A stretch of 64,000 nt of DNA from Candidatus Poribacteria bacterium (GTDB lineage Bacteria; Poribacteria; WGA-4E; WGA-3G), in contig OZ244048.1 of assembly GCA_965215265.1 (NCBI GenBank), positions 576,001 to 640,000 on the forward strand, in the 5' to 3' direction. Below the pieces are notes generated by a model, which was not told where the DNA came from, ran no database searches, and was given only the letters and a program-made list of their open reading frames with translations. This document shows positions 4,644 through 57,152 of this stretch, in pieces. The first letter of the stretch is position 1. Every line of letters begins with the position of its first letter. Position numbers and translations under genes: made by a program.

Positions 4644-6524
4644 TTACCAATATGAATTATTTGAGGTGTGGCCCCCTGGGATGGGTATCCATACGCCGCC
4701 GGTTCTCACAGCTACCTCATGTTGGAAATCGTCGTAAGTGCCAATAACGCTGACTATAGCGTGTTTGCCTTGCAAAAGTTGGATAGTGGCTAACGCTGAG
4801 TACTTGCCCTTAGCAGGTTCATCCGTAACCAAAATCAGATAAAGTTGTGCGTTTGTCCGTAATTTGACCCGCCGCAGTCCTTCCTCAATGGCATCTAACA
4901 GCGTTTCATCCTCTTGGTACGGCAGAGCTGCGATTTTCTGAATCTGCACCAGCGTTTGCGGTGGACTGAAAACGTTTACCATATTTACGGAGGCACGCGT
5001 ACGGAAACGCACCACGCCGATTTCGTAATCAATGAATGCGTTATCCCAATTTCGAAGCATCAACTCGAATTGCTTCAGAAGGTTAGGCAATTTATCCTCC
5101 ATGCTTTTGCTACTATCAATGAACAAGATAATATCAACCGGAGTGTGGCTGTGTTTTTGAAGCAGATGATCTCCAATCTTTTCGACGTTTGTCCATTCTG
5201 CAAGGCGTAATGTCTGTGCCATAGCCCGCGGTGTCGTAGCGGTGTTGAGATGCATAAGAGGCGGGGCATCTTCAGGAATAACGTGCCATTTACCTCCGGT
5301 TTGTGTTGCCAGTGCCTGATGCTCAGCTGTAGGAAGCCCGAGGACGTTGACATAGATACCGAATTCACGGCAGTAGGCGATAGCATCACTCACCGTCAGT
5401 CCCTCAAGGCTTGTGAACGGTTCATCTGTCACGAGAATAAAATGTCTTTTGGAGGTAGGACGAAATTGGAGCTCCTTCACCGTCTGGACAATTGCATCGA
5501 GCGCGTTTTCGTCTTGATGCGGCATGATTGTTCGGATGGCCCGTTTATAGACTGAAAGATTTTTTGTCAACTGCAGCACGTTAATTGTGTTTTTCTTCTC
5601 CTTCGGATCTCCCCAGAATTCTGTCAAACCGAGCGCGTAATCAATTTTAGAGGAACGGTATACGTCAATCATCTCTGTCAAATGTTCTGCAACTGCTTTG
5701 ATATTATTCCTCATACTCCCACTCGCATCAATTACAAACACGACATCAATTGGACCGCCCTCACTCGTGTCAACAATCTGCTGAGCAAGCCCTTTCATCA
5801 GTTTGTTAAATCGATTCTGGGAAATAACGGCCGGCTTTTTTCTGTCAAATGCAAAATCGCTATCACCCTCTACCTCTGTGATATCGAGGAGCCTAGTGGT
5901 CCCTTCTTGTCCATGGTCTCGCAGTGGCGCGCGTTGAATACCTAACTTCCCACTTCGTTTTGAACCAAATGAACCTGTTCCTGAAACACCAGCTACTTCC
6001 GTTGTAGAGAGCTCTTGGGCCAAGTTCCGAAGAGCACGAGACGTTGTACTTACCTCGGATGGAACCTCCGGTTCAAGAGGGGCTTGCTTAAGACGTGGTT
6101 CAGTGCGATTTACTAGAGGGACTGACCTGATACTCGGTTGAATGCCTATTTCCGGCGTGATACTTTCAACCTTTGCGATAGGTACGTTTGCAGAAACATC
6201 ACGCGGTGTCTCATGAAAACGAAGTATGCTCTTTTTCGGACGCGATTTTGGTTCCTTCAAGACCTTCCCTACTGCAATCAGTTCTGCCTCTATGCTCACT
6301 GTGTTTGATGATATTGGCTTCTTCTGCACTACGACGTAAAATGTCAGGACGAAAAATACGAGGTGTAATATTAACGATATAAATAAAGCACTACTAGTTA
6401 TAGATTTTAGTCTCGCTTCCGTAAAAACCTGATTGTTTCGTTTTCGCGGTAGGCGCGACTTCAGGTTGTGAGCTCTAACATTTTTTCTATTCAAACTTCT
6501 TAAACGAACGTTTGGGTTCTTCAT
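4644..6524 (-). CDS. Membrane-anchored protein with two vWA domains
   Basis: N-terminal TM (ISLILHLVFF); two MIDAS motifs DASGSM and DSSKSM, each followed by ILVTDEP. Confidence 0.85.
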   Translation of the reverse strand: MKNPNVRLRSLNRKNVRAHNLKSRLPRKRNNQVFTEARLKSITSSALFISLILHLVFFVLTFYVVVQKKPISSNTVSIEAELIAVGKVLKEPKSRPKKSILRFHETPRDVSANVPIAKVESITPEIGIQPSIRSVPLVNRTEPRLKQAPLEPEVPSEVSTTSRALRNLAQELSTTEVAGVSGTGSFGSKRSGKLGIQRAPLRDHGQEGTTRLLDITEVEGDSDFAFDRKKPAVISQNRFNKLMKGLAQQIVDTSEGGPIDVVFVIDASGSMRNNIKAVAEHLTEMIDVYRSSKIDYALGLTEFWGDPKEKKNTINVLQLTKNLSVYKRAIRTIMPHQDENALDAIVQTVKELQFRPTSKRHFILVTDEPFTSLEGLTVSDAIAYCREFGIYVNVLGLPTAEHQALATQTGGKWHVIPEDAPPLMHLNTATTPRAMAQTLRLAEWTNVEKIGDHLLQKHSHTPVDIILFIDSSKSMEDKLPNLLKQFELMLRNWDNAFIDYEIGVVRFRTRASVNMVNVFSPPQTLVQIQKIAALPYQEDETLLDAIEEGLRRVKLRTNAQLYLILVTDEPAKGKYSALATIQLLQGKHAIVSVIGTYDDFQHEVAVRTGGVWIPIPGGHTSNNSYW

Positions 6525-21521: not shown

Positions 21522-24020
21522 TTAATGCGGAATCCCCAATTGGTGCATTCGACGATGAATCGCTTCACGTGCTTGCTGGAACGGACGAGAGAGAAATTCT
21601 AAGTGATCTTCCTCGCCGTGGTGATGTGTTACAGTGCCGGGGGCGTGGTGACGTGCGGTGCTTTGGATATACGACAATCCGCCTTCAATCAATGTGAGCA
21701 TATAGTTGGCAGTTTCAGAGTCAAACATCCACCATTCTCCGCCGACGGCGATATAGACAGGGGAGGTATGGGCGATGATGCCGCGTCCCCATCCGTCATG
21801 GTGTGGAACGGCTTGGGCATAGCCGGGACCGCCACATCGCGCTGCAAGCCATGAATGTTTGTTAACTTTTACGTTCGCTTTCAGGCGCAATTGCCGAGTG
21901 CCATTTTTGTCTTCTGTAGACGCAACAACGCGGCCTGCTTGAACGATTTCTAAGGTATGAATCGGGAAAATCGAATCGGCGGCTGCCTCCACTTCAACCG
22001 TACCGCCGTTACCGGGTAGGTTAATCGTGCTACCGACCGGTTCGCCGTTAACAGTCAGCCGAATCATCGGTCCGCCGCTGAGGAACGTGTTGCCTGCCCG
22101 CATGTATTTGCACCAATTGTCGTAGTTGAATTCCTCATCAGCCGGAATGTGAACGTAGGTACGATACACGCCAACCGGTACATCACTGCTCATCTTATCG
22201 GTTCCACCAACGAGAGGCAACTTGTACCCACAATTAAGGTAGCGATAGTATTCAATGTGGCCATACATCGCGTTGGTTAGATATTCAACGGCATCGACTC
22301 TGCCGGTTGCGATGAGCGTGGCGGGTTCGCAGTTCGGGTTCGGAATGTGCGGCAAAACGACGGTGCCGCCTTGTTCGTGACATGCATCCGCCCAATGTGA
22401 TAGCGTAACTTCCAGATTCCCCCCGAGCTCCGCTTCGCCGGGACCATCGGAGCACCACGGAGAAATGTGTTCCTTCAAACCGAGCAGTGTGAGATGTCCG
22501 AGGAGATGTTGGCGATTTTCTTGGGTGGCATAGACTATGCTACGCCCGTCATCCGATACGGTGGGCCTGCCGATGAATTCCTCGGTATTTGTGAAGAGAT
22601 GCCCCCATTGAGAGAGGAGGAGGTTGACGACACCAAGGTCCTCCCCTTGTGCTTCGGTATGCGCGCCTTGTGTCGAGAGAAAATGGACATGGGTATCGCC
22701 GCTAAAATAGCGTTCATCGTTCATATTACACCAACGCTTGAGCCGCAGCTTCAATTCGCGTTGTCCCGGTTTTATCTCAACGGTGGTGCGCAACGGCGTA
22801 TATTCATAGCCGCGAGCGACATCTACGATGACATCGCCGCGAGGCAGCCATCCCTGACAGGTGCCGTCAATGTAGGCGTAACTGATTTGCCCGAGCCGGA
22901 CATCTCCTCCGACATCTATATGCCAAGTCCCCATGTTGGAATTAACATGCGCATGGTGGCCATGTGGTGCGTACGGCACTCCATGAGGAGAACGGAAATG
23001 GATGCGGCACGGCACCGGTTTGCCGGTGTCCTCATCAACAACGGTGGTATGCACCCAGTTTCTGCCAGTGTCAATGATTTCTACCTTGACGCGCTCATTC
23101 GGCTGCACACTGCATTTCTCTTGCACCTCGCCCCAGTTAACGGTTCCGAGGGTTTCGCCGTGGTTTTTAATGTCGAGACTGGCAGACGGAGCCGCAGAGA
23201 CTTCAACGTATGCGGGACTGCTCTTGTTGTTTTGAGCCTCTCCCCAGCCTTTGAAATCATCGTCGAGGAACTGTTCTGCGGAATCTTCAGGTAACGGATA
23301 GGGATACGTAGCAGTGCCGCGGTCGACATCGACTTCAATATCAAACGGTTTTTCGACATCGTCAGGATTCTGGAGAGTAATTTTGACTTCGCGTCTCGCA
23401 CGGCGTGGAATCGGGTCTTCATCTCGGTGCCCAAGCGTTACACCGGCAATCAGGAATTTCTGGGTCTCCGGCTGAATTTCAAGAAGCTCTATTGTTAGAT
23501 GCGGTTTCGGGTTTTTCCACACCCATAAGTAGTAGTCGCGCGGTCCTCCTTGTGTAGCTTCCGTTTGCCGGTTCCCGGCGGAGCCCCAATTGCCTTCGTG
23601 TCGAGGCATCACTCCATCTTTCTCGTCTGGCCAGGCCAGGAAAGGATGTTGCCCCCATCCGGGCGGCACAACCGCAATCTCAAATCGTTCACGAATTGGA
23701 ACAGTGTAGGTTTCACCACCCGCGTATTGGAAGACATAGTGAGCAATCAGTTTCCCGACCGGCTCGCCCGCAAAAATGTCGGATTGCAAGAGCCGATGGG
23801 CGACAATTATGTTCTTTGCGGTGGTGTTAATAGGAATCTTTAAAGGTTCAGTGCTAATACCATCGCCGAAGCCCAAAAAACAGTTGTCCCCTTCTCCAAT
23901 CAGGAAAGGAAGCCCATGGAACGTTTGTGAACCGACGTTCGGCGTTGCCTGCGAGTTAATGATTCCAACACCGGCATTGCACAAAGTCGAAAGTGAAATA
24001 GGTTGGTAGTCTGGCATCAT
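21522..24020 (-). CDS. CehA/McbA family metallohydrolase (PHP-like)
   Basis: SGDTHVH, QENRQHLLGH, YYRYLNCG..LPLVGGTD, AHTSPVY. Confidence 0.8.
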   Translation of the reverse strand: MMPDYQPISLSTLCNAGVGIINSQATPNVGSQTFHGLPFLIGEGDNCFLGFGDGISTEPLKIPINTTAKNIIVAHRLLQSDIFAGEPVGKLIAHYVFQYAGGETYTVPIRERFEIAVVPPGWGQHPFLAWPDEKDGVMPRHEGNWGSAGNRQTEATQGGPRDYYLWVWKNPKPHLTIELLEIQPETQKFLIAGVTLGHRDEDPIPRRARREVKITLQNPDDVEKPFDIEVDVDRGTATYPYPLPEDSAEQFLDDDFKGWGEAQNNKSSPAYVEVSAAPSASLDIKNHGETLGTVNWGEVQEKCSVQPNERVKVEIIDTGRNWVHTTVVDEDTGKPVPCRIHFRSPHGVPYAPHGHHAHVNSNMGTWHIDVGGDVRLGQISYAYIDGTCQGWLPRGDVIVDVARGYEYTPLRTTVEIKPGQRELKLRLKRWCNMNDERYFSGDTHVHFLSTQGAHTEAQGEDLGVVNLLLSQWGHLFTNTEEFIGRPTVSDDGRSIVYATQENRQHLLGHLTLLGLKEHISPWCSDGPGEAELGGNLEVTLSHWADACHEQGGTVVLPHIPNPNCEPATLIATGRVDAVEYLTNAMYGHIEYYRYLNCGYKLPLVGGTDKMSSDVPVGVYRTYVHIPADEEFNYDNWCKYMRAGNTFLSGGPMIRLTVNGEPVGSTINLPGNGGTVEVEAAADSIFPIHTLEIVQAGRVVASTEDKNGTRQLRLKANVKVNKHSWLAARCGGPGYAQAVPHHDGWGRGIIAHTSPVYIAVGGEWWMFDSETANYMLTLIEGGLSYIQSTARHHAPGTVTHHHGEEDHLEFLSRPFQQAREAIHRRMHQLGIPH

Positions 24021-24236
24021 AAGCCCCCTCTGTTCGTGCGTTGTATTGTCGATTTCTCTGTGTGAAGTTATAGTGCTTGCTTGGGATTATAGCAGAAGTG
24101 CTAAATTTTTGCAAGGGACGATCAAGAATATCGTTATTTCCCAAAGATGGCAAGGAACTGGCGTGTTAAGTAATTCGCATCCTTTTCTCTACTGCTTGTG
24201 CTTCTTATTTTCCAGAAGTTGTGGGAGACAAAAAAG

Positions 24237-44240: not shown

Positions 44241-46049
44241 TTAAGAAATTAAGGGGTTTTTCACCTTTTGTCTCGAATCCGGTGCGGTTGGAATGCAGGT
44301 CGCAATCTGATATGCGTATCCGTCGCGTTTCTGGATTTTGCGAAGTTGTTTGATATTGCCACCGACGCGATCGTCTCCGTCCCACGATTTTTTTACACGC
44401 AGTTTTTGAGGTTTTCCTTCAGATGTTTTATCAAACGAGTTGATATGTCCCACAACTTTCCCTTTGTGTGTGAGCATTTCGACCATATCCAGTTTTTGAA
44501 AACCGCCCGCGTGTTCAACACGCGTATAAGGTCGTTTGAATCCGGGCGCGGTCTGCTTTGTTTGGCAATTGCCTAAATCTCTGCGATGCCCGTATCCTAC
44601 TGCATGGATACCTAGCACAGAAAGCGGCATGTTTGGCAGTTTGACAACCCCTGCGACACACGCTGCATCATAGTAGTGTGTTTTTGGCAACCCCGCTTGT
44701 GAACGATGATATTTCGTTTTTCCACCGGTGCCACAGAAGACTTCAAGCCCCGTCGCTTTTAGCGTCTCTACAATCTTCCAACGAATCGTGTTGACTGCGG
44801 CAGCATCCTTTAGCGGTTTTTTGGCAGCTGCTGATGCTTTTTTCACACGTTCCGCAAAATCTTTACCATGTTCCTCTTCATTTATCTCATCAGGGTGTAG
44901 GTTACCTTTTTTGGTATTACACGGGCCACATGACAATGTCAGGTTATCCACACGGTTTGTACCTCCTTTCGCTTTCGGGATAATATGCTCTATTTCGAGA
45001 GGCACGTTCTTTTCCTTGCAATAATAACATTTCCGACCGAACTTCTCAAGTAGGTATTCCCGTATTTCATATCCTTGAAGTTTACCCTGTTGGTATTCCT
45101 CTCCCGATATTTTAGAGTTATCCATCAGTTGCATATCAAACTTCACGTGTTCAACTGCTAGCTTTTTGATAGGATAAAGCTTTGAAAGCCTGTTCACCCA
45201 TGTCGCGATATTATAGATACGTGACATCAAGGATGGTGCTACCCAACCATTATCGGGGTTCTCTTCTTTTTCGATAAAAGAAAAATATAATTGCGGTTCT
45301 TCACGGCGGTTGCGCTTTTGGGCGTTGCTATATTCACGTTTTAAGACACGCCGCCACCTTTTCTTTACAGAATGCTTTTTCGGGCTATAGGTGTACACCT
45401 TTTTTGGATAACGCTTTTTATACTGCTTATGTGCCTCGTTATTGCTATTATAGCGATAATATTTACCTCCTTTTTCATAGTAAATATCGCCAGTACGCAT
45501 GCGTTTCCCGTTGGCGTAATAGAGCCGTGTCTTCTCTCTATGTTTTGCAGGCGAAGGGCGTAACCGCGTCCACTCGTAACGCTTATCTTTCAGCATGGCA
45601 TCGCTGACACGATGGAATGTGTTTTCCGTTTTCCGGGTATTCTTGACTTTTTCATATATCCACTGCCCGTTTACAAGGCGAGGACTCTGACGAGAACGGT
45701 TATCAAATCGGGGGGCACGGTGACGACAGTTCCGAGTCCGCCTACTCCGACGATGCCCGCTTCTATCCGACAACGCTTTCTTAATGCTTTTCCGGTGATG
45801 CAACTCAAAAAAAGCAACGACGGTGTTCTCTGAATCTGTAATCGCCATGCCAGTGCATTTTGAGCCAGGGTCAATTGAGAGGGTATAGTCGCCTGTTTGT
45901 GACTCAGGCACCTCAAGTTTCAAGATAATGGTGAATGGATAACGTTTGTAGACCGCAGCCTTCTCCTCGCGAAGTAAACGCCTCGCAACAGCAGGATGGC
46001 ACGGTTCTAATACGCGTTTCTTTGTATCTAATACAGGAACTTTTGACAT
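44241..46049 (-). CDS. iscB: Enlarged RNA-guided endonuclease IscB (CRISPR-associated)
   Basis: PLMP/RRXRR-like N-terminus (VLEPCHPAVARRLL..YPFTIIL); RuvC-I SIDPGSK; bridge helix RSGHRRSRRTR..RFDNR; GWVAPSL; RuvC-II VEHVKFD; HNH CYYC..EHIIP..GGTN..NL..CGPCN; RuvC-III THYYDA. Confidence 0.95.
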   Translation of the reverse strand: MSKVPVLDTKKRVLEPCHPAVARRLLREEKAAVYKRYPFTIILKLEVPESQTGDYTLSIDPGSKCTGMAITDSENTVVAFFELHHRKSIKKALSDRSGHRRSRRTRNCRHRAPRFDNRSRQSPRLVNGQWIYEKVKNTRKTENTFHRVSDAMLKDKRYEWTRLRPSPAKHREKTRLYYANGKRMRTGDIYYEKGGKYYRYNSNNEAHKQYKKRYPKKVYTYSPKKHSVKKRWRRVLKREYSNAQKRNRREEPQLYFSFIEKEENPDNGWVAPSLMSRIYNIATWVNRLSKLYPIKKLAVEHVKFDMQLMDNSKISGEEYQQGKLQGYEIREYLLEKFGRKCYYCKEKNVPLEIEHIIPKAKGGTNRVDNLTLSCGPCNTKKGNLHPDEINEEEHGKDFAERVKKASAAAKKPLKDAAAVNTIRWKIVETLKATGLEVFCGTGGKTKYHRSQAGLPKTHYYDAACVAGVVKLPNMPLSVLGIHAVGYGHRRDLGNCQTKQTAPGFKRPYTRVEHAGGFQKLDMVEMLTHKGKVVGHINSFDKTSEGKPQKLRVKKSWDGDDRVGGNIKQLRKIQKRDGYAYQIATCIPTAPDSRQKVKNPLIS

Positions 46050-46054
46050 AATGT

Positions 46055-46256
46055 CCTCTACTTTCGCAAGTAGGTAATGTAAGCCTCGATAATGTTAGTA
46101 TCGCTTTTGGGTCAAGGTTGACTGCGTATTGTACAGCTGTTTACAGAGCCTCCACAGAGCCTCAGACTGGCTTATGTATCCAAGGGTGTGATAACGAAAC
46201 TAACGTAGTTAAAAACTAAATCTTGATTACACTGTAGCCTACTTTTGTGTCGCAAC
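46055..46256 (-). ncRNA. omegaRNA scaffold with 5' CRISPR anti-repeat (tracr-omegaRNA)
   Basis: Minus strand: anti-repeat GTTGCGACACAAAAGTAGGCTACAGTGTAATC (46225-46256), then omegaRNA/HEARO-like blocks ACTACGTT, ACCCTTGGAT, CCAGTCTGAGGCTCTGTG, GTAAACAG, ACATTATCGAGG, TTACC, ending just before the iscB start. Ends approximate. Confidence 0.85.
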
Positions 46257-46260
46257 TTTT

Positions 46261-46350
46261 GCCGTCAACCTCCCAATAAAAATACATTATTGGGGGTCGA
46301 CTGCAAACTCTTCACGCTGGAGCTATACGCTCACTGCGTTCTCACATAGC
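46261..46350 (+). promoter_or_regulatory. Putative CRISPR acquisition leader with inverted repeat
   Basis: gtcaacctcccaataa...ttattgggggtcgac inverted repeat (46264-46301) about 50 bp before the first perfect repeat; the degenerate repeat is at the opposite end. Confidence 0.55.
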
Positions 46351-48177
46351 GTTGCAACCTAAGCAAGCTACAGCGTAAACTCAAAATATGCTACAATACT
46401 AATATCAATTAAGAAGTTGCAACCTAAGCAAGCTACAGCGTAAACGCGTTAAGAGCGTTCGGATTCGTTGTCAAACAAATGTTGCAACCTAAGCAAGCTA
46501 CAGCGTAAACCAGGCAGCATATAACAAGTTCGCACTGTTATCAGATAGTTGCAACCTAAGCAAGCTACAGCGTAAACGAAGCCCTTTTCATACTAACAGA
46601 TGAAAGCAAACGGGTTGCAACCTAAGCAAGCTACAGCGTAAACGTATTCTATGATATGCCAACCGTGGATGCGGTTTGTGTTGCAACCTAAGCAAGCTAC
46701 AGCGTAAACTGCTACGAGGTTTTTCATATTGAAAGCATGACGCAGGTTGCAACCTAAGCAAGCTACAGCGTAAACTAAACCGAATGCTATGACTACTAAC
46801 GTCATGCCAGCGTTGCAACCTAAGCAAGCTACAGCGTAAACTACGTACGATCCACTGTGCATACGTCTGCCCAGGGATCGTTGCAACCTAAGCAAGCTAC
46901 AGCGTAAACGAGGGTTACCTTTTCTGAAATCATTTCATCCCCCCAATGGTTGCAACCTAAGCAAGCTACAGCGTAAACTGAAGCCCTTTTCATACTAACA
47001 GATGAAAGCAAACGGTTGCAACCTAAGCAAGCTACAGCGTAAACAGTAACCCAATCAGCCAGCTGCAGCACACACTGCAGCGTTGCAACCTAAGCAAGCT
47101 ACAGCGTAAACTATTACACAAGCGCGTTGGGAGAGCAAACTGAAAGAGTTGCAACCTAAGCAAGCTACAGCGTAAACTTGATTGAGTATCTCAACTTCAT
47201 TCGTTGGCCATACAGTTGCAACCTAAGCAAGCTACAGCGTAAACACAGAAGCGTCGCCTGATGAAATCCGTAAGGTCCAAAGTTGCAACCTAAGCAAGCT
47301 ACAGCGTAAACCGCGTCCTCGAAAGGATCCACGGTGAATCTGCTCTGGTTGCAACCTAAGCAAGCTACAGCGTAAACTGCTCTCTTTCTGCTCTTATAGC
47401 ATCGACTGTGTCTGTGTTGCAACCTAAGCAAGCTACAGCGTAAACTTAGATATGCAAATGAAAGCTGGCATGCTTGATTCTAAGTTGCAACCTAAGCAAG
47501 CTACAGCGTAAACTTTACGATTTTGAGAACTGTCGGCTGGTATCATGAACGTTGCAACCTAAGCAAGCTACAGCGTAAACCTCGCTACGTCAACCCCGAC
47601 GGCACGCAATGTCTCTGGTTGCAACCTAAGCAAGCTACAGCGTAAACCTTGCAAGGATATTCTCATTAAATTCACTTATTGGAGTTGCAACCTAAGCAAG
47701 CTACAGCGTAAACATGTAGGATATGAGATTGCCTGCTTCGTGTGCCTCGTTGCAACCTAAGCAAGCTACAGCGTAAACTACTTCAATGTTTCGATCGGTT
47801 CGTATCCTGCGGCCTGTTGCAACCTAAGCAAGCTACAGCGTAAACATCGGAAAGGGGGATACGCTGAAGTTGACAGAACACGTTGCAACCTAAGCAAGCT
47901 ACAGCGTAAACATGAAAAAGATTTTTCATCTCAACCGTCCTTTTGAAAGTTGCAACCTAAGCAAGCTACAGCGTAAACTTACTGTAGTATCCTTCGATTT
48001 CCGCAACTTCTGCCGTTGCAACCTAAGCAAGCTACAGCGTAAACTCTTTTGACTTTACCGTATCCTTGTGTCCGTTTTTTAGTTGCAACCTAAGCAAGCT
48101 ACAGCGTAAACGCATTACGCCCAACCCACACAAGCAACGATTCTGACGCTGTAACATAAGCAGGCTACCACGTAAAC
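46351..48177 (-). CRISPR. CRISPR array: 28 repeats (27 identical plus 1 degenerate), 27 spacers of 35-39 bp
   Basis: 30-bp repeat, plus strand GTTGCAACCTAAGCAAGCTACAGCGTAAAC; terminal copy 48148-48177 has 6 mismatches. Minus-strand expression is inferred from the promoter and anti-repeat wobble pairs. Confidence 0.99.
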
Positions 48178-48179
48178 AT

Positions 48180-48208
48180 ATTATATCTTAACTTGCAAAA
48201 AAAGTCAA
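48180..48208 (-). promoter_or_regulatory. sigma70 promoter pointing into the array toward iscB
   Basis: Minus strand TTGACT (48203-48208), 17-bp spacer, TATAAT (48180-48185); predicted TSS inside the degenerate repeat. Confidence 0.8.
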
Positions 48209-48222
48209 GTTAAAGTTGCAGC

Positions 48223-48301
48223 CTCTCATTTACCCCCATTTTTTTTGAAGGTTTGTGGTGAAAGGTTTTTGTTTAGAAATGTGTGAGAAAAGCAGTGGGT
48301 T
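48223..48301 (+). mobile_element. Solo degenerate end of the IS4-like element
   Basis: 48234-48301 closely matches the reverse complement of 9699-9766 (ccccattttttttgaaggtttgtggtgaaaggtttttg...gcagtgggtt). Confidence 0.7.
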
Positions 48302-48555
48302 AGAGATACCCGAACCGGGTAAATCCCACATCTCTGATAACCCGTTTTCAAGACACCTTCAAGGCTTCTGGGACCTCCGCCCCTAGCCCGATGCCACCGG
48401 CACCGAAGACAGCAGCCCTCTGCTTGCAGGGAGACATGAGGTTACCATCAAAAATCTAAAAAAAGAGTGACTTTTTTTCCCATCTGTGTTATACTTCTTT
48501 GCGAGCCAAGTGGCAAACTGGAAAAATGCAGCTTGCGGCAGGCAGGTAAAAAACG

Positions 48556-48633
48556 ATGAAAAAGAATTTCACTACCATTCGGCTCTGGGATGTCAACACA
48601 GGCGAACCCCTCAAAACTCTCATGTCTGTCTAA
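48556..48633 (+). pseudogene. WD40-protein gene remnant (25 aa)
   Basis: MKKNFTTIRLWDVNTGEPLKTLMSV*; TIRLWDVNTGEPLKTL is a typical WD40 junction. Confidence 0.55.
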
Positions 48634-49727
48634 GTGTGCAAGGCTTGTAGGAACGCTTCAAAACTGGGTGTCTCAACGGCGATGAGATGCAGCTGCTTGA
48701 GCCGCACCAGGTCTGGTATGGCTTCAAGGTGCGGTTGAGTCGTCTGCACGTCGCTCTGCGGGAACCGTGCGGTGAGCACCGTGATGACGTTTTCTATCGC
48801 ATTCCGGCGTGCACCTTGTTCAATGCCTTGCTCAATGCCTTGTTTGAGTCCTTGTTGCACCAGGACTTCTGCCATTGTCTCTGCCATCTGTTTTACCTCC
48901 ATCTTATCTTCTGCGAGTTGCTCCACTAATGCGACTAAGCCACTTTGTTCTGATAGCGGCCGACGATGCAAGATGAGTAGCAGGAAATAGACTATCGCCT
49001 CACGCCGCTGTTCGGCACCAACCGTATCAAACTCATCAAGGTGTGCTATCGCCGTGCGTAACGCATCCCGTATCTCCGCCTCGTCTGCTCTCTCTTTTTG
49101 CAGCACCGTCAAAAGCCACCCGAACGGATGATGCGTTTGAGTCAGTGTGGCGACATCGGTTTGCTTCACGCTCAAAAACAGCGTCTCAAAGGCAGGAACG
49201 AACCGGGCGAGTTCAGCAGGGATGTCCATCAGTGCCTCAAGTGTCAGCGGGGTTTTCCACTGCTGCTCGCCGGTATAAAACACAATCGGCAGTATCGGGG
49301 GCAACCGCCGCGCCGGTTTGGGCACCTTGTCGTGTTCCCATTGCCTGCGATGTGCGTCCCAAATCAGCATCATATAAAACAGCACCCGAAACCCCATCGT
49401 CGCATCCACCGTCGATTGATGTTCGACGAGCAGATAGATGAGCAGCGCCTCGGTGGCTGTCTCGGTTCTAAACGGGACGCGGAACACGCTATCCGCTTCC
49501 TGCTCCCGCAGCACTTCCGGCAGCAGGCTTCTCGGGAGTGGAACGAGTTGGCTAAAATCTATGCGTTCTGCGATGTCAGCGGCGACGATTTCTAGCACAC
49601 CCCGGACGTTTTCGCCGTTTTGTAGCAAGCGCCGCACACTTCTGTCGGCGAAGTGTTCAACGCGTCCATCAAGCAGCGCGCGGATATGCTGCATCTGCGT
49701 ATCCACGGCTTTGGTTTCTTGCGTCAT
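48630..49727 (-). CDS. Rpn/YhgA-like PD-(D/E)XK protein
   Basis: EADSVFRV, IYLLVEHQS, FRVLFYM, LPPILPIVFYTG..W; C-terminal QGIEQGIEQG repeats. Confidence 0.9.
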   Translation of the reverse strand: MTQETKAVDTQMQHIRALLDGRVEHFADRSVRRLLQNGENVRGVLEIVAADIAERIDFSQLVPLPRSLLPEVLREQEADSVFRVPFRTETATEALLIYLLVEHQSTVDATMGFRVLFYMMLIWDAHRRQWEHDKVPKPARRLPPILPIVFYTGEQQWKTPLTLEALMDIPAELARFVPAFETLFLSVKQTDVATLTQTHHPFGWLLTVLQKERADEAEIRDALRTAIAHLDEFDTVGAEQRREAIVYFLLLILHRRPLSEQSGLVALVEQLAEDKMEVKQMAETMAEVLVQQGLKQGIEQGIEQGARRNAIENVITVLTARFPQSDVQTTQPHLEAIPDLVRLKQLHLIAVETPSFEAFLQALHT

Positions 49728-49910
49728 TTCTCTCCTCAGTGCCGGGGGCCTGCCATTCGGGCAGCCCGCCGGTAAAAAGCGGTGAAGACTTAACTCAAAT
49801 TATACTACTTTTGGCAGTAAAGATGCCACCCTTTTTTTTCTGGCGATTTCGTTTTCGCTTCTGACAGCGGAGGTTGTGGACTAAAAAAAGCAAAAACCGC
49901 TCACTTTTCC

Positions 49911-49939
49911 TTGACAATACCTCAAAAATAATGTATAAT
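49911..49939 (+). promoter_or_regulatory. sigma70 promoter for the mod gene
   Basis: Exact consensus TTGACA-N17-TATAAT. Confidence 0.75.
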
Positions 49940-49976
49940 TAAAACAAAACAAACCAATAACCTGAAAACAACACTC

Positions 49977-52900
49977 ATGCGAACACCAAAACAGAAACTC
50001 CAAACGCTTCTCCAACAACTCTTCCGTACCGATGCCGCCGAACTCGACTTCGGCATCTACCGCATCATTAACTACCGCCGCAACCAAATCCAAAACTTTA
50101 TAGATACCGAGCTCCCCACCCTCATCAACGACGCGCTCCACGCAGACACACACGCAGAAAATGCACACCAACAGATAGAAACCCTCGCAAAACAGATACA
50201 ACAAACCCTCGGCGACACCGTCTTAGACGCAGACGGAAACCTGCTCAACGAGAACTTCAGACAAGCCCCACTTGTCCAGCAATACCTCACCGCAAAACAA
50301 CAACTCGGCACCCCCAGAACCCAAACCGAGCGCGCCGATGCCGTTTTCAATCACCTCTACACCTTTTTCTCACGCTACTACGAAAATGGCGACTTCCTCC
50401 CACGCAGACGCTACACGCAAACCCAACGATACGCCATCCCGTATAACGGCGAAGAAGTCTACCTCCACTGGGCAAACCGAGAACAATACTACGTCAAAAG
50501 CGGAGAGCATTTCACCGGTTACACGTTCAAAGCCGAAGCGATTACTGTCACCTTCTCGCTCCGCACCATAGACATAGAAAAGGACAACGTCAAAGGCGCG
50601 AAACGCTTCTTCATTCCGCTCTCTGCCGAAACGCAGTATCGCCCGGAAACCAAGCAGCTGGAGCTCCCGTTTGAACATCGTCCGCTCACTGATGCGGAAA
50701 AGAAGCGCTACGGCAAGCAGAAACAACAAGAGAAAATCCTGGATGCCGCTGAACCTGAAATCCTAGCAAACCTGAGCGCTCACTATGAAGTGCTGTCTGC
50801 CCTAGAGCGCCGCACGGATGAACTAAGCACGCTGAAGAAACACCTGCGCACCTACACGCGCCGCAACACGTCGGACTTCTTCATCCACAAGGCGCTGAAG
50901 CGATTCCTGACGCGTGAGTTAGATGTATATCTAAAAAACGAGGTTATCCCTCTGTCTGGCTTTATACTTAACACATATCAAGGGGGGGGGCGGTACGGGC
51001 AAATGGAAACGGCCCCACGCCGCCACCTTGGCTTGAAACCGCACAACTCGTTCACCGCATCGCCACACAACTCATCCACTTCCTCGCTGACATAGAAGAC
51101 TTTCAGAAACGCCTCTGGCTCAAAAAGAAATTCGTCCTCTCTACCGACTACTGCCTCACGCTCGACCGGGTCCCGGAAGCGTTCTACCCCGAAATCGCTC
51201 ACAACCGCGCACAACGCGAGGCGTGGCAGCACCTCTTCGCCATTGAGGATATCGCAGGCCACCTCATCAACACCGACTATTCTGAGCCGCTCACGGTGGC
51301 ATTCCTCCAGCAAAACCCGAACCTCGTTCTGGATACCTGTCACTTCGACGCAGACTTCAAAGACCGGCTGCTGGCACACTTCGACGAACTGGATGCCCAA
51401 ACCGATGGACTGCTCATTCATGGAGAGAATTTCCAAGCGTTAAACCTCCTCACCGCGAAATACCGAGACACCGTGAAAGCCATCTACATAGATCCGCCCT
51501 ATAACACCAAAGGCTCCCCAATTTTGTATAAGAATGACTATAAAGATTCATCATGGATGTCTCTCATGGCTGACCGAATTGCTATTTCCCGGGAGTTATT
51601 AACAAACAACGGTACCTTCTGTGCCGCCATTGATGAAGTGGAAGCTCCTAACCTTTGGCAGCTTCTCCAACAGCTATTTGGCAAAGAAAATGAACTTGGG
51701 GTTGCAGTGGTCTGTACAAACATATCCGGGGTCACAACACCTAAGAGACTCGCTGCATGTCACGAATATGCCATGTTCTTCGGCAAGAAACCTGACGTAA
51801 AGGTCGGACATGTTAAATGGACGGAAAAACAACTCAAAAACTATAAAGATATTGACAATCAAGGCCGCCGTTTCAGATGGGTAAATCTCAGGAATGATGC
51901 CGGAGGCCCTAATAAACTGCGGGAAAACAGCCCGCGTATGTTCTACCCGCTTTTCGTGAGCGATCAGAACATACGCATTCCGAAAATTGAGTGGGATGAA
52001 GAAGCTAGGCAGTGGCAACTATTAGAATCCCCTACCCCGAATGAAACAGAAGTATTACCGATTCAGCCAAATGGAAATGAAGTGACATGGCAATACTCGA
52101 TAGAACGGGTGGAGGCGATGTTATCATCATCCGAACTGTATGCGAGAAAAGATAAAAATGGGAATATCCGAATCCGCTTAAAGTGGTTCCTAAAAGAGGA
52201 GGGTATATTGCCAAAAACATGGTGGGATAAAAATGTATACGCTGCTGGTAGATATGGAACGACTTTTCTCACAGATATGTTCAGCGACAATTTTGCATTT
52301 CCATATCCGAAGTCCATCTATCTCGTAGAGGATTGCCTCCGCGTCTCTTCGCTGGGTAAAAACGATACTGTCTTAGACTACTTCGCAGGTTCTGGCACCA
52401 CCGCCCACGCCACCATCAACCTGAACCGCCAAGACAACGGCAACCGAAAATATATTCTCGTAGAAATGGGACACCACTTCAACACCGCTCTCAAACCCCG
52501 GCTCCTCAAAGCCATATACGCACAAAACTGGAAACACGCAAAACCCACATCACGCCAAAGCAAACTCTCACACCTCTTCAAATACCAACGCATAGAATCC
52601 TACGAAGATACACTCAACAACATCCAGTTCAAAACACACCAAAATCCGCTCTTTCAAGAACCGATGCTACGCTATCTGTTAGGAAACGAAACCCATGAGA
52701 GCCCAACGCTGCTCAACATTGAGAAGCTCCAAACCCCATTTCACTATCAACTCAACATCGTCACCGGGCTAAACACACAAACACAAACCATAGACATTCC
52801 GGAAACCTTCAACTACCTGCTTGGGCTCACCGTCAAAACCCGGCGCGTCTTCTACGATAAAGCCAGACGCTACCTCGTCTACCGTGGCACTCTCCAGGCG

Positions 52901-53092
52901 AAGAGCGTCACGATTATCTGGCGAGAGACGCACGGCTGGCAACCGGAAGATTGGGAAAGAGACTCTCGTTTTATTCAACACCATAAACTCACGGAACACG
53001 CAGACACGCTCTATGTGAACACCGACAGCATCGTCCCCGAGGCAAAAGCGTTGGACGTGCTCTTCAAACAGTTAATGTTCACCGAACCGTGA
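49977..53092 (+). CDS. mod: Type III R-M methyltransferase (Mod), frameshifted at a G9 tract
   Basis: LDFGIYRI, YNGEEV.LHWAN, DFFIHK in the first frame; IEDFQK.LW.KKKFV, YIDPPYNT, YPKS, DYFAGSGTT in the second frame, open from 50972; G9 at 50982-50990. Confidence 0.85.
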
Positions 53093-53218
53093 ACCGGCGG
53101 GCGCGAAAATGTTACCGGTTCCGCCTTTTTTTGGGGGGGGGAAATATGAGAGAAAACGCCTCTGCACCTATACAGGGCGTGCGTTATCAACTAGATGCAA
53201 CATGTTACCAAAAACAGA

Positions 53219-53244
53219 AAAACGTTACCAAACGGTAACGTTTT
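53219..53244. promoter_or_regulatory. Perfect inverted repeat (operator or hairpin)
   Basis: aaaacgttacc-aaac-ggtaacgtttt just before the RBS of 53261; extra gttacc half-sites upstream. Confidence 0.4.
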
Positions 53245-53260
53245 AAGGAGAAATAAAAAG

Positions 53261-53998
53261 ATGAAATTCAAAGAAAAACACAAGCAATTCGCCGTCAAAT
53301 GCTACGCGCGATTTATGAAACGCTCTGATGTCCTTGCGGCATTCATGTCAGAATTTTTTCACGATGTATTGCAGCCACACCTCGAAGAAAGCCTTGAAGA
53401 GAACGCCTCGGTGGAGCTTATAGAAAAAGCGGCCGATTTATTCAAGGCATTAAACATGCGAATAGAAGCCACGGAGAAAAGAATGGAGTCGTGGAATCTC
53501 CCCCCAGAGTCGGATATCACCAGCGCCGACGTAATCACCAGCTTGGCATCCTATTTTGGAAACCCAGGACTGCCTAAGGAATTTATGATCACAGTCACCA
53601 AAAAACTCTCAGAGCAACTTCGCAGGTTCGACATTACCCATCGCCAATTTCCTAAAAAATACGAGACACTGTTTTACGAAACCCGCAGAGACTTTTGTGC
53701 CAGCTACAACGATGCCAACCTGCAAAACGCAGATAACATCGCTACGGAATTGAACAACCTCTACGGCTACACCAAACAACTCGCCTTTCAAGAAGAAGAA
53801 CCGGAAAAGGCCATAAAACACGTGAACCTCGCACACCAACTCCTCAAAACCCTGATTACCTACAAAGCACTCAACGCAGAGCAAAACCTCGTAGATGTCA
53901 CCCCCGGAACCGCAAAAGACATGATAGGAGCTCCGAAACATTTAACGCAACAATTAGAGAAGAACGCAGAAACAACAAACGGGAAACAACCGTCATGA
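53261..53998 (+). CDS. Hypothetical protein, weakly DUF2280-like
   Basis: AGGAG RBS; KQFAVKCYARF and KKYETLFYETRRDF resemble DUF2280 segments from memory. Confidence 0.55.
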   Translation: MKFKEKHKQFAVKCYARFMKRSDVLAAFMSEFFHDVLQPHLEESLEENASVELIEKAADLFKALNMRIEATEKRMESWNLPPESDITSADVITSLASYFGNPGLPKEFMITVTKKLSEQLRRFDITHRQFPKKYETLFYETRRDFCASYNDANLQNADNIATELNNLYGYTKQLAFQEEEPEKAIKHVNLAHQLLKTLITYKALNAEQNLVDVTPGTAKDMIGAPKHLTQQLEKNAETTNGKQPS

Positions 53999-54035
53999 GT
54001 GTCCGAACAGCCCCTATTGTCTTTCGCTAAAGCAA

Positions 54036-57000
54036 ATGTCTACTTTTCAAGGAATTCGCACTATGTCCAAACCTCGCAGCCTAGAAACCGAGCTCCTCCG
54101 CCACGCCTGGCTCAATCACAACTTCGGCTACAACACCACCGGCGAGCTGCTCCACGCCATGAAAAACGAAGCGGAACGCCTCAGCCAAGACGGACACGCC
54201 GCCCTCACTGAAGCGCTCCGCGCACGCGCCACACCGCCAATCGCAGACGCACTCCCAACCTACGATGCCAACATCCAACGCCACCTCAATGCCATCAACC
54301 GCACCCGAATCCAACCCATCCGCCTCCGCTATTTCCAATACCTCGCACTCCTCTACACCGAAATCTGCCTCGATTGGACATTGAATAAACGCACCGCCTT
54401 CTTGCACCACCTCAACGCCTTCGTCCAACAACGCAACGCCGACAAAGCCCCCGGCGAACCCCAACACGCCCGCTTCACCGACGCAGAACTCGATAAACTC
54501 GCCTTCTGGATGGCGACAGGGGCAGGCAAAACCCTCATTCTCCACATCAACTACCACCAGTTCCGACACTACTGCCAAACCCCGTTGGATGACATTCTGC
54601 TCATCACGCCCAACGAGGCTTTGAGCGAACAACACCGGCGCGAACTCGCAAACTCTGACATCCCCGCAGAACGCTTCCAAATGCACCGAAACCGCATCGC
54701 ACACACACACAACGCCATACAGATACTCGAAATCACAAAACTCGTCATCCAAAAAACAGGAGAAGGCGACACCATACCCGTTGAGGCGTTTGAGGGCAAC
54801 AACCTTATTTTCGTTGATGAGGGACACAAAGGCACCGGCGGAGATGTCTGGCGCCACCTTCGCCAACAACTCGCCCAGACAGGCTTCACCTTTGAATACA
54901 GCGCCACCTTCGGACAAGCGCTCGCCGCCGCAAAAAACCGAGAACGCGTTGAGGAATACGGCAAAGCCATCGTCTTCGACTATTCATACCGCCACTTTTA
55001 CGCAGACGGCTACGGAAAAGACTTCCGCATCCTCAACCTCAAACACGACGAACACACCCAAACCGAGACGCTCCTCCTCGCCAATCTCCTCGCTTTCTAC
55101 CAACAGCACCACTACTTCACACACAACCGAGACATCGCACACACCTATGGATTAGACGCACCCCTCTGGGCGTTCGTCGGCAGCAAAGTCAACGCCGTCT
55201 ATACCGAAAAGCACACAAAACGCTCCGATGTCCTCACCGTCCTCCGATTCCTCCACCGATTCCTAAAAAACCCGCACAACTGGGCCATCCGCACCCTCGC
55301 CAAAATCCTGAATGGAGAGAGCGGGCTCACCGATGAAAACGGCACCGATGTCTTCGCCAACCAATTCCCTCTGCTCTCTCAACTTCACAAAACCCCAGCC
55401 GACATATACACCGCCATCCTCACAGAAGTCTTCCATACCGATACCCATGGCGCACTGCATCTCTCTCACATCCGAAACGCACCCGGCGAAATCGCACTCA
55501 AAGCCACACACGGCCGCCAGAACTTCGGACTGCTCTACATCGGCGATACCGCTTCCTTCAAAAAACTCGTTGAAACCGATGATGCCGCCATCGTCTTCGA
55601 CACCGATAATCTCATCACGGAGAGCCTTTTCACCCACATCAACACGCCCACGAGCCCCATCAATCTCCTCATCGGCGCCAAAAAGTTCATAGAGGGCTGG
55701 GACAGCTGGCGTGTCACCGCCATGGGACTGCTCAACATCGGCAGGCAAGAAGGCGCACAAATCATACAACTCTTCGGGCGCGGAGTGCGCCTGCGCGGCA
55801 AACAGATGAGCCTAAAACGCAGCAGCGCCCTCGACGGCGAACATCCACCCCATCTCCGGCTATTGGAAACCCTCAACATCTTCGCCGTCCGGGCAAACTT
55901 CATGGCACAATTCCGAGAATACCTCACCCGTGAAGGTATCCCTGCAGAAGAACCTGTCCACATAGAAATCCCCATCAAACCCAACAAAGATTGGCTACAG
56001 GCACCGCTGTTTGTCCCAGAAGTCCCAGCCTACCGCGACGACGCGAAAGACACCTGCGTGCCCTTAGCCGTCAACCCAGGCATCTATATCACCCATCGCA
56101 CCCAAACCGTTGAAATCCTACAAAGTCGCAACACCGAAAGCATACAAGACAGCACCGCACAACCCGCCATAACCCACGCACACATCCCACACGACAGCCT
56201 CAACCTCCTCAACTGGGAAGCAATCTACCTCCAACTCATCGAATACAAACAGCAAAAGCAGTATCACAATCTCATCTTCGATACCCCCACCCTCAAACGC
56301 ATCATCGCCCCAGACGCTGGCACCTATCAACTCGCCATCAGAGACGAAACTGACATCATACCCACGTCTCTCACAGAACTCGCCCGGGTAGAGCAACTCG
56401 TCCTCACACTGCTCCGCAAGTATCTCACCAAATTCTACGGCACCATCCAGAAACGGTGGAGTGAGCATCGCATCCGCCTCCGCATCTTAGACGAAAAAGA
56501 CACGAACTTCACCAACTGGCGCGTCGCCATCTCCCAAAACAACGCACAGGAACTGGTGCCGCACCTCACAGCCCTCATAGAGGCTGGCACCATCTACGGC
56601 CCCGACTTCACCGCGCTACCCACCGCCTATAACGAATGCCACCTCTACCAACCCCTCCTCGCCGAGGACAACCGCACCATAGAACGCACCACCCCACCCC
56701 CTTTGAACGCAAGCGAAAAAGCGTTTGTCGAAGATATGCACCGCTACATCCGAAAACATCACAACAGAAAACAGATTGTCCTCTTACGCAACCACAGCCG
56801 AGGCAAAGGCATCGGATTCTATCAAAACCACGGATTCTACCCCGACTTCATCCTCTGGATGCTTCACGACGGCAAACAACGCATCGTCTTCATTGAACCG
56901 CACGGCCTGATGCATGAAGCCATCAACCCACACAACCACAAAATCACGCTATTCAAAACACTCCGCCACATCAGCGATACACGGTTCCGCAGGCAGCCCG

Positions 57001-57152
57001 TCGAAATGGATGCCTATATCATCTCCAGCACCGATTTCACACAGATGCAGAAAAAATGCGGACTCGACAAACTGACTTTCGAGCAGTGGCATATCCTTTT
57101 CCCAAACCCTACCGATACCACATACCTCGAACCAATTTTCAGACAGACGTAA
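54036..57152 (+). CDS. res: Type III restriction subunit (Res), SF2 helicase plus nuclease
   Basis: FWMATGAGKT, VDEGH, EYSATF, QLFGRGVRLRG, C-terminal FYPDFILW..FIEPHG. Confidence 0.92.
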   Translation: MSTFQGIRTMSKPRSLETELLRHAWLNHNFGYNTTGELLHAMKNEAERLSQDGHAALTEALRARATPPIADALPTYDANIQRHLNAINRTRIQPIRLRYFQYLALLYTEICLDWTLNKRTAFLHHLNAFVQQRNADKAPGEPQHARFTDAELDKLAFWMATGAGKTLILHINYHQFRHYCQTPLDDILLITPNEALSEQHRRELANSDIPAERFQMHRNRIAHTHNAIQILEITKLVIQKTGEGDTIPVEAFEGNNLIFVDEGHKGTGGDVWRHLRQQLAQTGFTFEYSATFGQALAAAKNRERVEEYGKAIVFDYSYRHFYADGYGKDFRILNLKHDEHTQTETLLLANLLAFYQQHHYFTHNRDIAHTYGLDAPLWAFVGSKVNAVYTEKHTKRSDVLTVLRFLHRFLKNPHNWAIRTLAKILNGESGLTDENGTDVFANQFPLLSQLHKTPADIYTAILTEVFHTDTHGALHLSHIRNAPGEIALKATHGRQNFGLLYIGDTASFKKLVETDDAAIVFDTDNLITESLFTHINTPTSPINLLIGAKKFIEGWDSWRVTAMGLLNIGRQEGAQIIQLFGRGVRLRGKQMSLKRSSALDGEHPPHLRLLETLNIFAVRANFMAQFREYLTREGIPAEEPVHIEIPIKPNKDWLQAPLFVPEVPAYRDDAKDTCVPLAVNPGIYITHRTQTVEILQSRNTESIQDSTAQPAITHAHIPHDSLNLLNWEAIYLQLIEYKQQKQYHNLIFDTPTLKRIIAPDAGTYQLAIRDETDIIPTSLTELARVEQLVLTLLRKYLTKFYGTIQKRWSEHRIRLRILDEKDTNFTNWRVAISQNNAQELVPHLTALIEAGTIYGPDFTALPTAYNECHLYQPLLAEDNRTIERTTPPPLNASEKAFVEDMHRYIRKHHNRKQIVLLRNHSRGKGIGFYQNHGFYPDFILWMLHDGKQRIVFIEPHGLMHEAINPHNHKITLFKTLRHISDTRFRRQPVEMDAYIISSTDFTQMQKKCGLDKLTFEQWHILFPNPTDTTYLEPIFRQT

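Follow-up and report, generated by a model that had tools for sequence, protein, structure and literature searches.

A CRISPR-associated IscB locus of Candidatus Poribacteria whose array is probably transcribed from one end and extended at the other, plausibly by a type I-B module acting in trans

How does an IscB nuclease that stands beside a long array of short palindromic repeats, clustered and regularly interspaced (CRISPR), come by its spacers, and from which end is the array read? The question is raised by a locus of a Candidatus Poribacteria bacterium, a sponge symbiont, on contig OZ244048.1 of assembly GCA_965215265.1. The window analysed is the 64,000-nucleotide (nt) stretch from position 576,001 to 640,000 of the forward strand, and coordinates are counted from its first letter unless marked G000, the handle of the source genome. 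We consider it probable that IscB and its CRISPR array form a domesticated defence locus here, the array being transcribed from its distal end and growing at its IscB-proximal end by type I-B adaptation in trans. Within this reading the polarity is likely and the I-B trans-adaptation plausible, the latter drawing on a single strong line of evidence and several weak ones.

The array (46351-48177; features are collected in Table 1) consists of 28 repeat units, 27 of them identical 30-nt copies and one degenerate. Throughout the 4.83 Mb genome the repeat was matched 27 times at up to three mismatches, every time inside this array. The 27 spacers were 35 nt (three), 36 nt (eleven), 37 nt (nine), 38 nt (three) or 39 nt (one) long, with a mode of 36 nt and a mean of 36.6 nt. 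All were distinct apart from one slipped pair, spacers 4 and 10, each 36 nt long and identical at 35/35 positions at a 1-nt offset. A shift of this kind is typical of integrase slippage and indicates two separate acquisitions and real integrase activity.

The direction of transcription was assessed from promoter-like sites. Both the degenerate repeat, which has six mismatches, and a TTGACT-N17-TATAAT promoter lie at the right end of the array, as the original prediction had stated. The promoter (48208..48180) was the sole minus-strand promoter-like site within 45800-48700, an interval in which no terminator-like site was found. A scan of both strands returned three sites with at least 9 of 12 consensus positions against 3.0 +/- 2.2 in shuffled sequence; as this count is at the level of the shuffles, only the quality and position of the 48208..48180 site are remarkable. 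Of 13 related arrays, 6 had a comparable promoter-like site on the IscB strand at their distal end, and only 1 had such a site on the antisense strand of the proximal flank. A plus-strand TTGACA...TATAGG noted by eye beside the first repeat in three relatives was dropped, since it fails the scan criteria. Judged by eye, no conserved promoter lies inside the repeats, and there is one external promoter instead.

The opposite end was suggested as the site of growth by patterns of repeat decay. Among 12 arrays with at least four repeats, the distal-most (promoter-side) repeat was mutated in 10, with 1 to 10 mismatches, and the proximal repeat was the commonest form of its array in 11; the related arrays are kin rather than independent samples, so these counts overstate independence and to that extent weigh against the proposed polarity. 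The one exception, locus L042, carries a derived G-to-A repeat variant in its four proximal repeats, the ancestral form in mid-array and two decayed distal repeats, as expected were the proximal repeat the template of every new one. L042, L043 and L044 belong to different species and have both flanks in common; the only spacer shared across species occupies the distal end in L042 and L043, with 18 identical nt and otherwise diverged. Taken together, the decay pattern, repeat variants, promoters and shared spacers suggest that the array most likely grows at its left, IscB-proximal end. It would most likely be transcribed from its right end on the IscB strand, antisense to the apparent I-B loading polarity. 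This agrees with the earlier proposal of growth at one end and transcription from the other.

Promoter and acquisition end coincide in most CRISPR systems, and TTAACTTGAC was seen by eye to be common to the promoter region and the -35 region of the I-B leader. An array of canonical polarity, in which the promoter-side flank would be the leader, new spacers would be inserted on the right and the degenerate repeat there would be accidental, is nonetheless improbable: the promoter-end repeat has decayed in 10 of the 12 related arrays, the L042 variants and the distal L042/L043 spacer run the other way, just 2 nt separate the -10 box from the degenerate repeat, and spacer 11, described below, would be inverted relative to the I-B rule.

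Public sequencing data were also considered. Thirteen public runs carry part of the stretch, none of those listed being RNA. In the four that were compared, sequence is stored as unitigs of about 95 nt, each a repeat-spacer-repeat, which makes spacer order and novel spacers unreadable. A contig of 180-186 nt with spacer 27, the degenerate repeat and the promoter had 0 differences in runs X1, X2 and X3. In 4/4 runs the left-flank contig reached no further than the first repeat, stopping within it or at its end; cover of the array interior was patchy and was given no weight. The exact repeat gave 0 matches in metagenome contigs.

The region between the array and iscB was predicted to encode a guide RNA. 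The order on the IscB strand is promoter, array, 45-nt linker, hairpin, anti-repeat, scaffold and iscB. The hairpin arises from the inverted repeat GTCAACC...GGTCGAC, which the original prediction had placed about 50 bp left of the first repeat and which lies at 46264-46301, 50 nt from its end to that repeat. It forms a 15-bp stem in the minimum-free-energy fold and was not listed by an automated repeat search of the sequence, which paired 46227-46244 with 46361-46378, that is, the anti-repeat with the repeat. At -38.1 kcal/mol on the IscB strand, the calculated duplex of perfect repeat and anti-repeat is stronger than on the opposite strand (-23.3) and than with shuffled repeats (-12.6 +/- 3.1), and a 370-nt RNA of the window folded with z = -5.3.

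Conservation of this fold was supported by covariation. A consensus RNA structure of 14 related loci contains 45 pairs, with 95.5% of cells paired versus 30-42% when partners were slid by 1-3 columns, and compensatory (both-side) changes in 23/45 pairs versus 4-10 in the slid controls; 0/500 shuffles matched the observed values. Helix 1, formed by the first 12 nt of the repeat and the anti-repeat, had compensatory changes in 7/10 pairs, helix 3 (the linker hairpin) was 99.1% paired with one pair G-U in 10 loci, and helices 5-9 of the scaffold also showed compensatory changes. Several pairs are G-U in most loci, so pairing is possible on the IscB strand only. Repeats vary between related loci and the anti-repeats change in step. 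The 3' two-thirds of the scaffold aligns with the upstream region of array-less Firmicutes IscB genes; Rfam gave no match at gathering score for the region. The hairpin thus lies within an RNA resembling a trans-activating CRISPR RNA (tracrRNA) or the guide of an OMEGA nuclease (from obligate mobile element-guided activity), hereafter omega-RNA, and so is not the I-B leader element that had earlier been suggested; it was found in 0/30 I-B leaders. Separately, 46115-46125 and 46261-46271 form an 11-nt complement (10/11 bases) between the strongly conserved GTCAACC stretch of the scaffold and a hairpin arm, which could provide a pseudoknot alternative to the local hairpin.

Candidate suppliers of spacers were sought among the Cas1 genes of the genome. 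There are two, at 522.7 kb and 1468.7 kb, neither of them inside the window, and no cas genes were found adjoining the IscB array, which in this respect is not a type I-B array. The first Cas1 cluster includes Cas6 and type III-A and type I-B genes (Cas8b1, Cas7, Cas3, Cas4 and Cas1b). Its array A (G000 524241-535579) has adjoining cas genes, 170 repeats of 30 nt, a single variant repeat at the trailer end and, at the acquisition end, a conserved leader that carries its own promoter. Array A spacers are 33-40 nt long (mode 36, mean 36.7), which bears out the earlier remark that the IscB array resembles I-B arrays. The second Cas1 locus, at 1.468 Mb, is of type I-D, with a Cas4/Cas1 fusion, Cas2 and a 65-repeat array (array B) with 36-nt repeats.

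Several observations point to the first cluster. Spacer 11 of the IscB array has a counterpart in array A, spacer 96: each is 37 nt in length, and a single mismatch separates them. That mismatch speaks for variant targets having been sampled in two acquisitions, with one selection and ruler mechanism at work in both. On the plus strand of the IscB array, which is antisense to IscB, spacer 11 runs in the leader-to-trailer direction of array A. The IscB array and array A did not differ in spacer length (Mann-Whitney p = 0.55). The I-B leader is conserved in the family, leader and first repeat being matched in 81/112 genomes, and among 30 I-B loci the leader ended in ATAGC in 15 and in AGC in 26. 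Read antisense, 15 IscB-proximal junctions gave ATAGC in 6, including the window, ATAGG in 4 and other AGC endings in 2. An I-B Cas1 was found in G000, G184 and G185, which have large IscB arrays, and also in G176-G178, G180 and G183.

The original prediction had gone further and proposed that IscB captured a class 1 array together with its leader. Had IscB landed beside, or captured, such a ready-made I-B array and read it backwards, the 30-nt repeat, the I-B-like spacer lengths, the spacer in common with array A and the ATAGC junction would all fit, and the repeat is identical to the I-B repeat at 11-15/30 positions, more than in shuffles (7.3 +/- 2.4). This origin is unlikely, however, given that the supposed leader is omega-RNA, with a linker hairpin and an anti-repeat that show compensatory changes, and that the conserved I-B leader is missing from the flank, only the 5-nt motif being common to it and the 30 I-B leaders. 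In addition, anti-repeats change along with the repeats between loci, the repeat-linker-anti-repeat RNA is retained where there are only one or two units, and the antisense similarity of the repeats is no better than the sense similarity.

That the I-D fusion and Cas2 at 1.468 Mb, or both modules together, fill the array is very improbable. It is the only other Cas1 in the genome, and G179, which has a 4-repeat IscB array, has only an I-D-type Cas1; set against this, I-D spacers are longer (mean 38.8 versus 36.6 nt, Mann-Whitney p = 1.6e-6), the I-D repeat is 36 nt, and no IscB spacer is common to array B beyond 13 nt.

Supply of the IscB array by the I-B module, and the polarity tied to it, must be weighed with a number of observations that count against them. 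Beyond the 5-nt ATAGC, no likeness to the 30 I-B leaders was found in the left flank, and ATAGC could be retained for an RNA reason. The similarity between the IscB and I-B repeats has no preferred orientation. Only one spacer is common to the IscB array and array A, and its orientation alone is a 1-in-2 event; in G033, G007, G030 and G010 no shared spacers were found (0 among 256 I-B versus 149 IscB spacers). Base composition at spacer ends (736 I-B versus 149 IscB spacers) did not separate the orientations. Arrays are also present where the expected integrase is not: G181 yielded no match to any Cas1 and yet has a 9-repeat IscB array, an I-B Cas1 is missing from G179, and G182 has kept its IscB array with an I-B Cas1 fragment only. 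No protospacer was found in any of the databases searched, and hence no protospacer-adjacent motif (PAM) or target-adjacent motif (TAM) was derived.

The arrays of G179, G181 and G182, which have 4-9 repeats, may be relics or may have another supply route. There is a small chance that the window array is itself a relic or self-generated, either by duplication of omega-RNA segments or with a lost integrase, acquisition having ceased. The persistence of arrays without I-B Cas1 in G179 and G181 would fit such an origin, as would the collapsed one- and two-unit arrays that nest beside the window protein in the tree, and serial duplication of omega-RNA segments is discussed as one origin of arrays in the available text of PMC10691335. 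The spacers of the window, all 27 distinct save the slipped duplicate, its 27 identical non-terminal repeats, and the near identity of spacer 11 with a spacer of the active-looking 170-repeat I-B array argue against it.

Other copies of the I-B leader and other duplicated spacers were recorded in the course of these comparisons. Array C (G000 C1:4319418-4319956, outside the window) is an orphan with six repeats of a different 29-nt sequence; its leader is 95% identical to that of the I-B array over 188 nt, so one leader family serves two unrelated repeats in the source genome. Two more copies of the I-B leader, at G000 C1:4751189-4751292 and 24019-24114, are each followed by one to three repeat-like units and look like solo or minimal arrays. 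Exact duplicate spacers one or three spacers apart were present in array A (59/61 and 159/163) and in the IscB array of L046 (p9/p7); these may reflect local duplication rather than re-acquisition.

Targets of the spacers were searched for in several databases. The source genome gave partial matches only, the best being 20 nt (spacer 11), 176 Poribacteria genomes gave no match better than E = 0.004, INPHARED phages gave only noise at 80% identity, and exact scans (five of viral contigs and one of metagenome contigs) gave 0 matches each. Spacer 2 of array C has a self-match of 37/38 at chromosome positions 3206665-3206701; its flank was not used as a source of a PAM, the array C repeat being different. 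Two copies of a palindromic element with a CTGCAGCACACACTGCAG core lie between small open reading frames at G000 C1:3910388-3910706. They partly match IscB spacer 11 and array A spacers 11, 96 and 122, and are perhaps remnants of a targeted mobile element.

These results can be combined into a model of how the locus would work. From the promoter at the far end of the array, transcription on the minus strand would yield a long precursor that covers the array, the scaffold and iscB. Within this transcript each spacer would precede a repeat whose 5' part pairs with the anti-repeat, and this pairing would yield Cas9-like guides with the spacer 5' and the scaffold 3'. New spacers would enter at the IscB-proximal repeat rather than at the promoter end, supplied in trans by the type I-B Cas4-Cas1-Cas2 module about 100 kb away at G000 522.1-524.0 kb, which would treat the omega-RNA-side flank (...ATAGC) as a leader and the 30-nt repeat as a ruler. 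The newest spacer would adjoin the only anti-repeat and scaffold of the transcript, the ancestral position of an omega-RNA guide, which may favour its use.

The IscB guide strand would then be the complement of the would-be I-B CRISPR RNA (crRNA). Type I systems have the PAM 5' of the protospacer on the crRNA-like strand, whereas IscB and Cas9 read a target-adjacent motif 3' of the protospacer; with opposite-strand reading, the 5' PAM of type I sits 3' of the IscB target, where IscB needs its motif. The original prediction had given another reason for antisense reading, namely that the spacer would lie 5' of the repeat. This reason does not hold, every spacer having repeats on both sides on either strand; what depends on the strand read is the choice of spacer strand that is made into RNA, and the side of the target where the adaptation motif falls. 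As a tentative extension, we suggest that an IscB without adaptation genes could have plugged into class 1 memory, with the 5' stem of the omega-RNA becoming the repeat, the RNA gene the leader and the I-B PAM the TAM through opposite-strand reading.

The identity of the nuclease was determined from domain and structure matches. Pfam scores were 9.2e-57 for RRXRR and 3.3e-12 for HNH, and the best relatives in the PDB were IscBs (TbaIscB 9.7e-36, OgeuIscB 1.5e-22), with Cas9-named chains far weaker. Residues D60, H355, H458 and D461 were invariant across six relatives. An insert of about 85 residues rich in K, R and Y follows the bridge helix (residues ~176-260, 45270-45530) and is missing from the five closest array-bearing relatives. 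A type II Cas9 would have a recognition (REC) lobe and cas1-cas2 in its locus; here the protein is 602 residues long with only the short insert, and the Cas1 genes are outside the window. Nor does the locus appear to reside in an IS200/IS605-type transposon: no second full-length copy was found in the genome, so that it is single-copy, and it lies between housekeeping genes and a restriction-modification cluster, although no search for transposon ends was made.

Related loci were examined for the presence of arrays. In the first set of relatives arrays were present in 5/6 loci, the sixth contig ending 51 nt upstream of the gene. Among 16 homologous Poribacteria loci, 11 have an array of 4 to 27 repeats directly upstream of iscB, one has two repeats with one spacer, two have a single repeat unit that pairs with the anti-repeat, one has neither repeat nor anti-repeat, and one contig was too short to judge. 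Of 24 loci scanned outside Poribacteria, none has an array upstream of iscB. In a quick maximum-likelihood tree, all Poribacteria proteins fell in one clade with 100% support in the Shimodaira-Hasegawa-like approximate likelihood ratio test (SH-aLRT). Loci with 0-2 repeat units were nested beside the protein of the window and so look like collapsed arrays rather than ancestors; the idea of an evolutionary path of stepwise growth (1, 2, 4, then 28 repeats) was dropped, as this nesting contradicts it. The Poribacteria iscB of L035, which lacks repeat and anti-repeat, has a perfect TTGACA-N17-TATAAT (5740-5770) about 25 nt upstream of the apparent scaffold start, and an unrelated array with 37-nt repeats downstream of the gene.

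The locus is flanked by housekeeping genes and a restriction-modification cluster. The genes at 48630-57152 provide a defence-island context beside it and suggest a type III restriction-modification system. Directly past the array promoter, at 48225-48480, is a dispersed repeat of ~140-250 nt resembling a miniature inverted-repeat transposable element. It has 28 further BLAST matches in the genome, six of them at least 137 nt long and the rest partial, and very high depth in the four public runs compared.

Table 1. Positions, strands and supporting evidence of the features of the IscB locus and its neighbours in the window
Feature	Position	Strand	Evidence or remark
iscB-like gene, 602 amino acids, with RuvC, bridge helix (Pfam RRXRR) and HNH	44241..46049	-	Pfam and structure-database matches
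Omega/tracrRNA-like scaffold, ~175 nt, reaching the iscB start codon	46050..46224	-	Homology, covariation
Anti-repeat, an inverted, diverged copy of the CRISPR repeat	46225..46256	-	Inverted-repeat pair, duplex energy, covariation
Conserved linker hairpin between proximal repeat and anti-repeat	46258..46307	-	Fold, covariation
ATAGC at the first-repeat junction, possible integration (leader-anchoring) motif	46346..46350	+	Function suggested by likeness to I-B leader ends
Perfect repeats (27 x 30 nt) and 27 spacers	46351..48147	-	Sequence, repeat scan
Spacer 4	46578..46613		Protospacer in common with spacer 10 (46979-47014), 1-nt offset
Spacer 11, counterpart of array A spacer 96	47045..47081	+	36/37 identical, first and last base in common
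Degenerate terminal repeat, six mismatches, first repeat transcribed in the proposed model	48148..48177	-	Sequence comparison
Sigma-70-type promoter TTGACT-N17-TATAAT, directed into the array	48180..48208	-	11/12 consensus positions
YhgA-like PD-(D/E)XK transposase	48630-49727	-	Defence-island neighbour
N6/N4 DNA methylase	51296-53092		Defence-island neighbour
ResIII/SNF2 helicase-nuclease	54036-57152		Defence-island neighbour

A CRISPR-associated IscB was reportedly described by Altae-Tran and colleagues in 2021. Such IscBs are a published kind of system (PMC12660989, PMC11610941, PMC10691335), and as far as the available text of these sources goes, the present locus shares with them an array upstream of the nuclease on the same strand, a direct repeat joined to an anti-repeat through a long loop, and the lack of cas1 and cas2 in the locus. 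According to the same text, arrays joined IscB several times and probably derived from omega-RNAs (PMC10691335), and DelIscB has a non-coding RNA of repeat-loop-anti-repeat design whose processing is stated to be unknown (PMC12660989). The locus described here differs in belonging to a chromosomal clade of Poribacteria with arrays of up to 28 repeats, in its protein of 602 residues against 457 in DelIscB, and in providing evidence on the supplier and the growing end, where the text available of PMC12660989 leaves RNA processing open. In the literature searched, supplements not covered, no paper on a Poribacteria IscB or on a class 1 module filling an IscB array was found, nor was the supply of spacers to CRISPR-associated IscBs found worked out. 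Relative to known CRISPR-IscB systems, the new element is the evidence on how the array is filled.

Parallels exist in other CRISPR types. In type II-C (for example Neisseria), acquisition at the 3' end relative to transcription is reported in the available text of PMC12638026, in line with the similar polarity that the original prediction pointed out. Type II-C has its own cas1 and cas2, a promoter inside each repeat, 36-nt repeats and 30-nt spacers, whereas the IscB locus has one external promoter and apparently borrowed adaptation. Type VI-B uses II-C adaptation in trans in Flavobacterium, where, by the text available, the effector locus has no cas1 or cas2 and its spacers come by way of another type's integrase in the same cell (PMC8092290); here the donor is of class 1 (I-B), and the user, a pre-Cas9 nuclease of OMEGA type, would read the opposite strand. 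Array A resembles the IscB array in its 30-nt repeat, spacer-length distribution, one spacer and the ATAGC before the first repeat, and differs in having another repeat (15/30), a conserved leader with a promoter at the acquisition end and adjoining cas genes. Type II-D (Cas9d), described as an intermediate between IscB and Cas9 in the portion available of PMC10691335, likewise combines a compact RuvC-HNH effector with an upstream array. In contrast, IscB chains outscore Cas9-named chains for the present protein, which retains a large scaffold of omega type with homology to the scaffold of IscBs that lack arrays.

CRISPR-associated IscBs are viewed as steps on the way from transposon nucleases to Cas9. 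In this case one genome holds both a candidate donor (I-B) and a candidate user (IscB), linked by a shared spacer, and related loci give a consistent polarity. If the proposed supply is correct, a single integrase and a single PAM duplex would serve two effectors that belong to different classes and read opposite strands, and the IscB TAM would be predicted to be the reverse complement of the I-B PAM. The arrangement is also relevant to how guides are designed for compact IscB editors based on repeat/anti-repeat RNAs. It would explain the uncoupled acquisition and promoter ends of early type II-like arrays, and would be a present-day illustration of a route by which type II could have gained adaptive memory.

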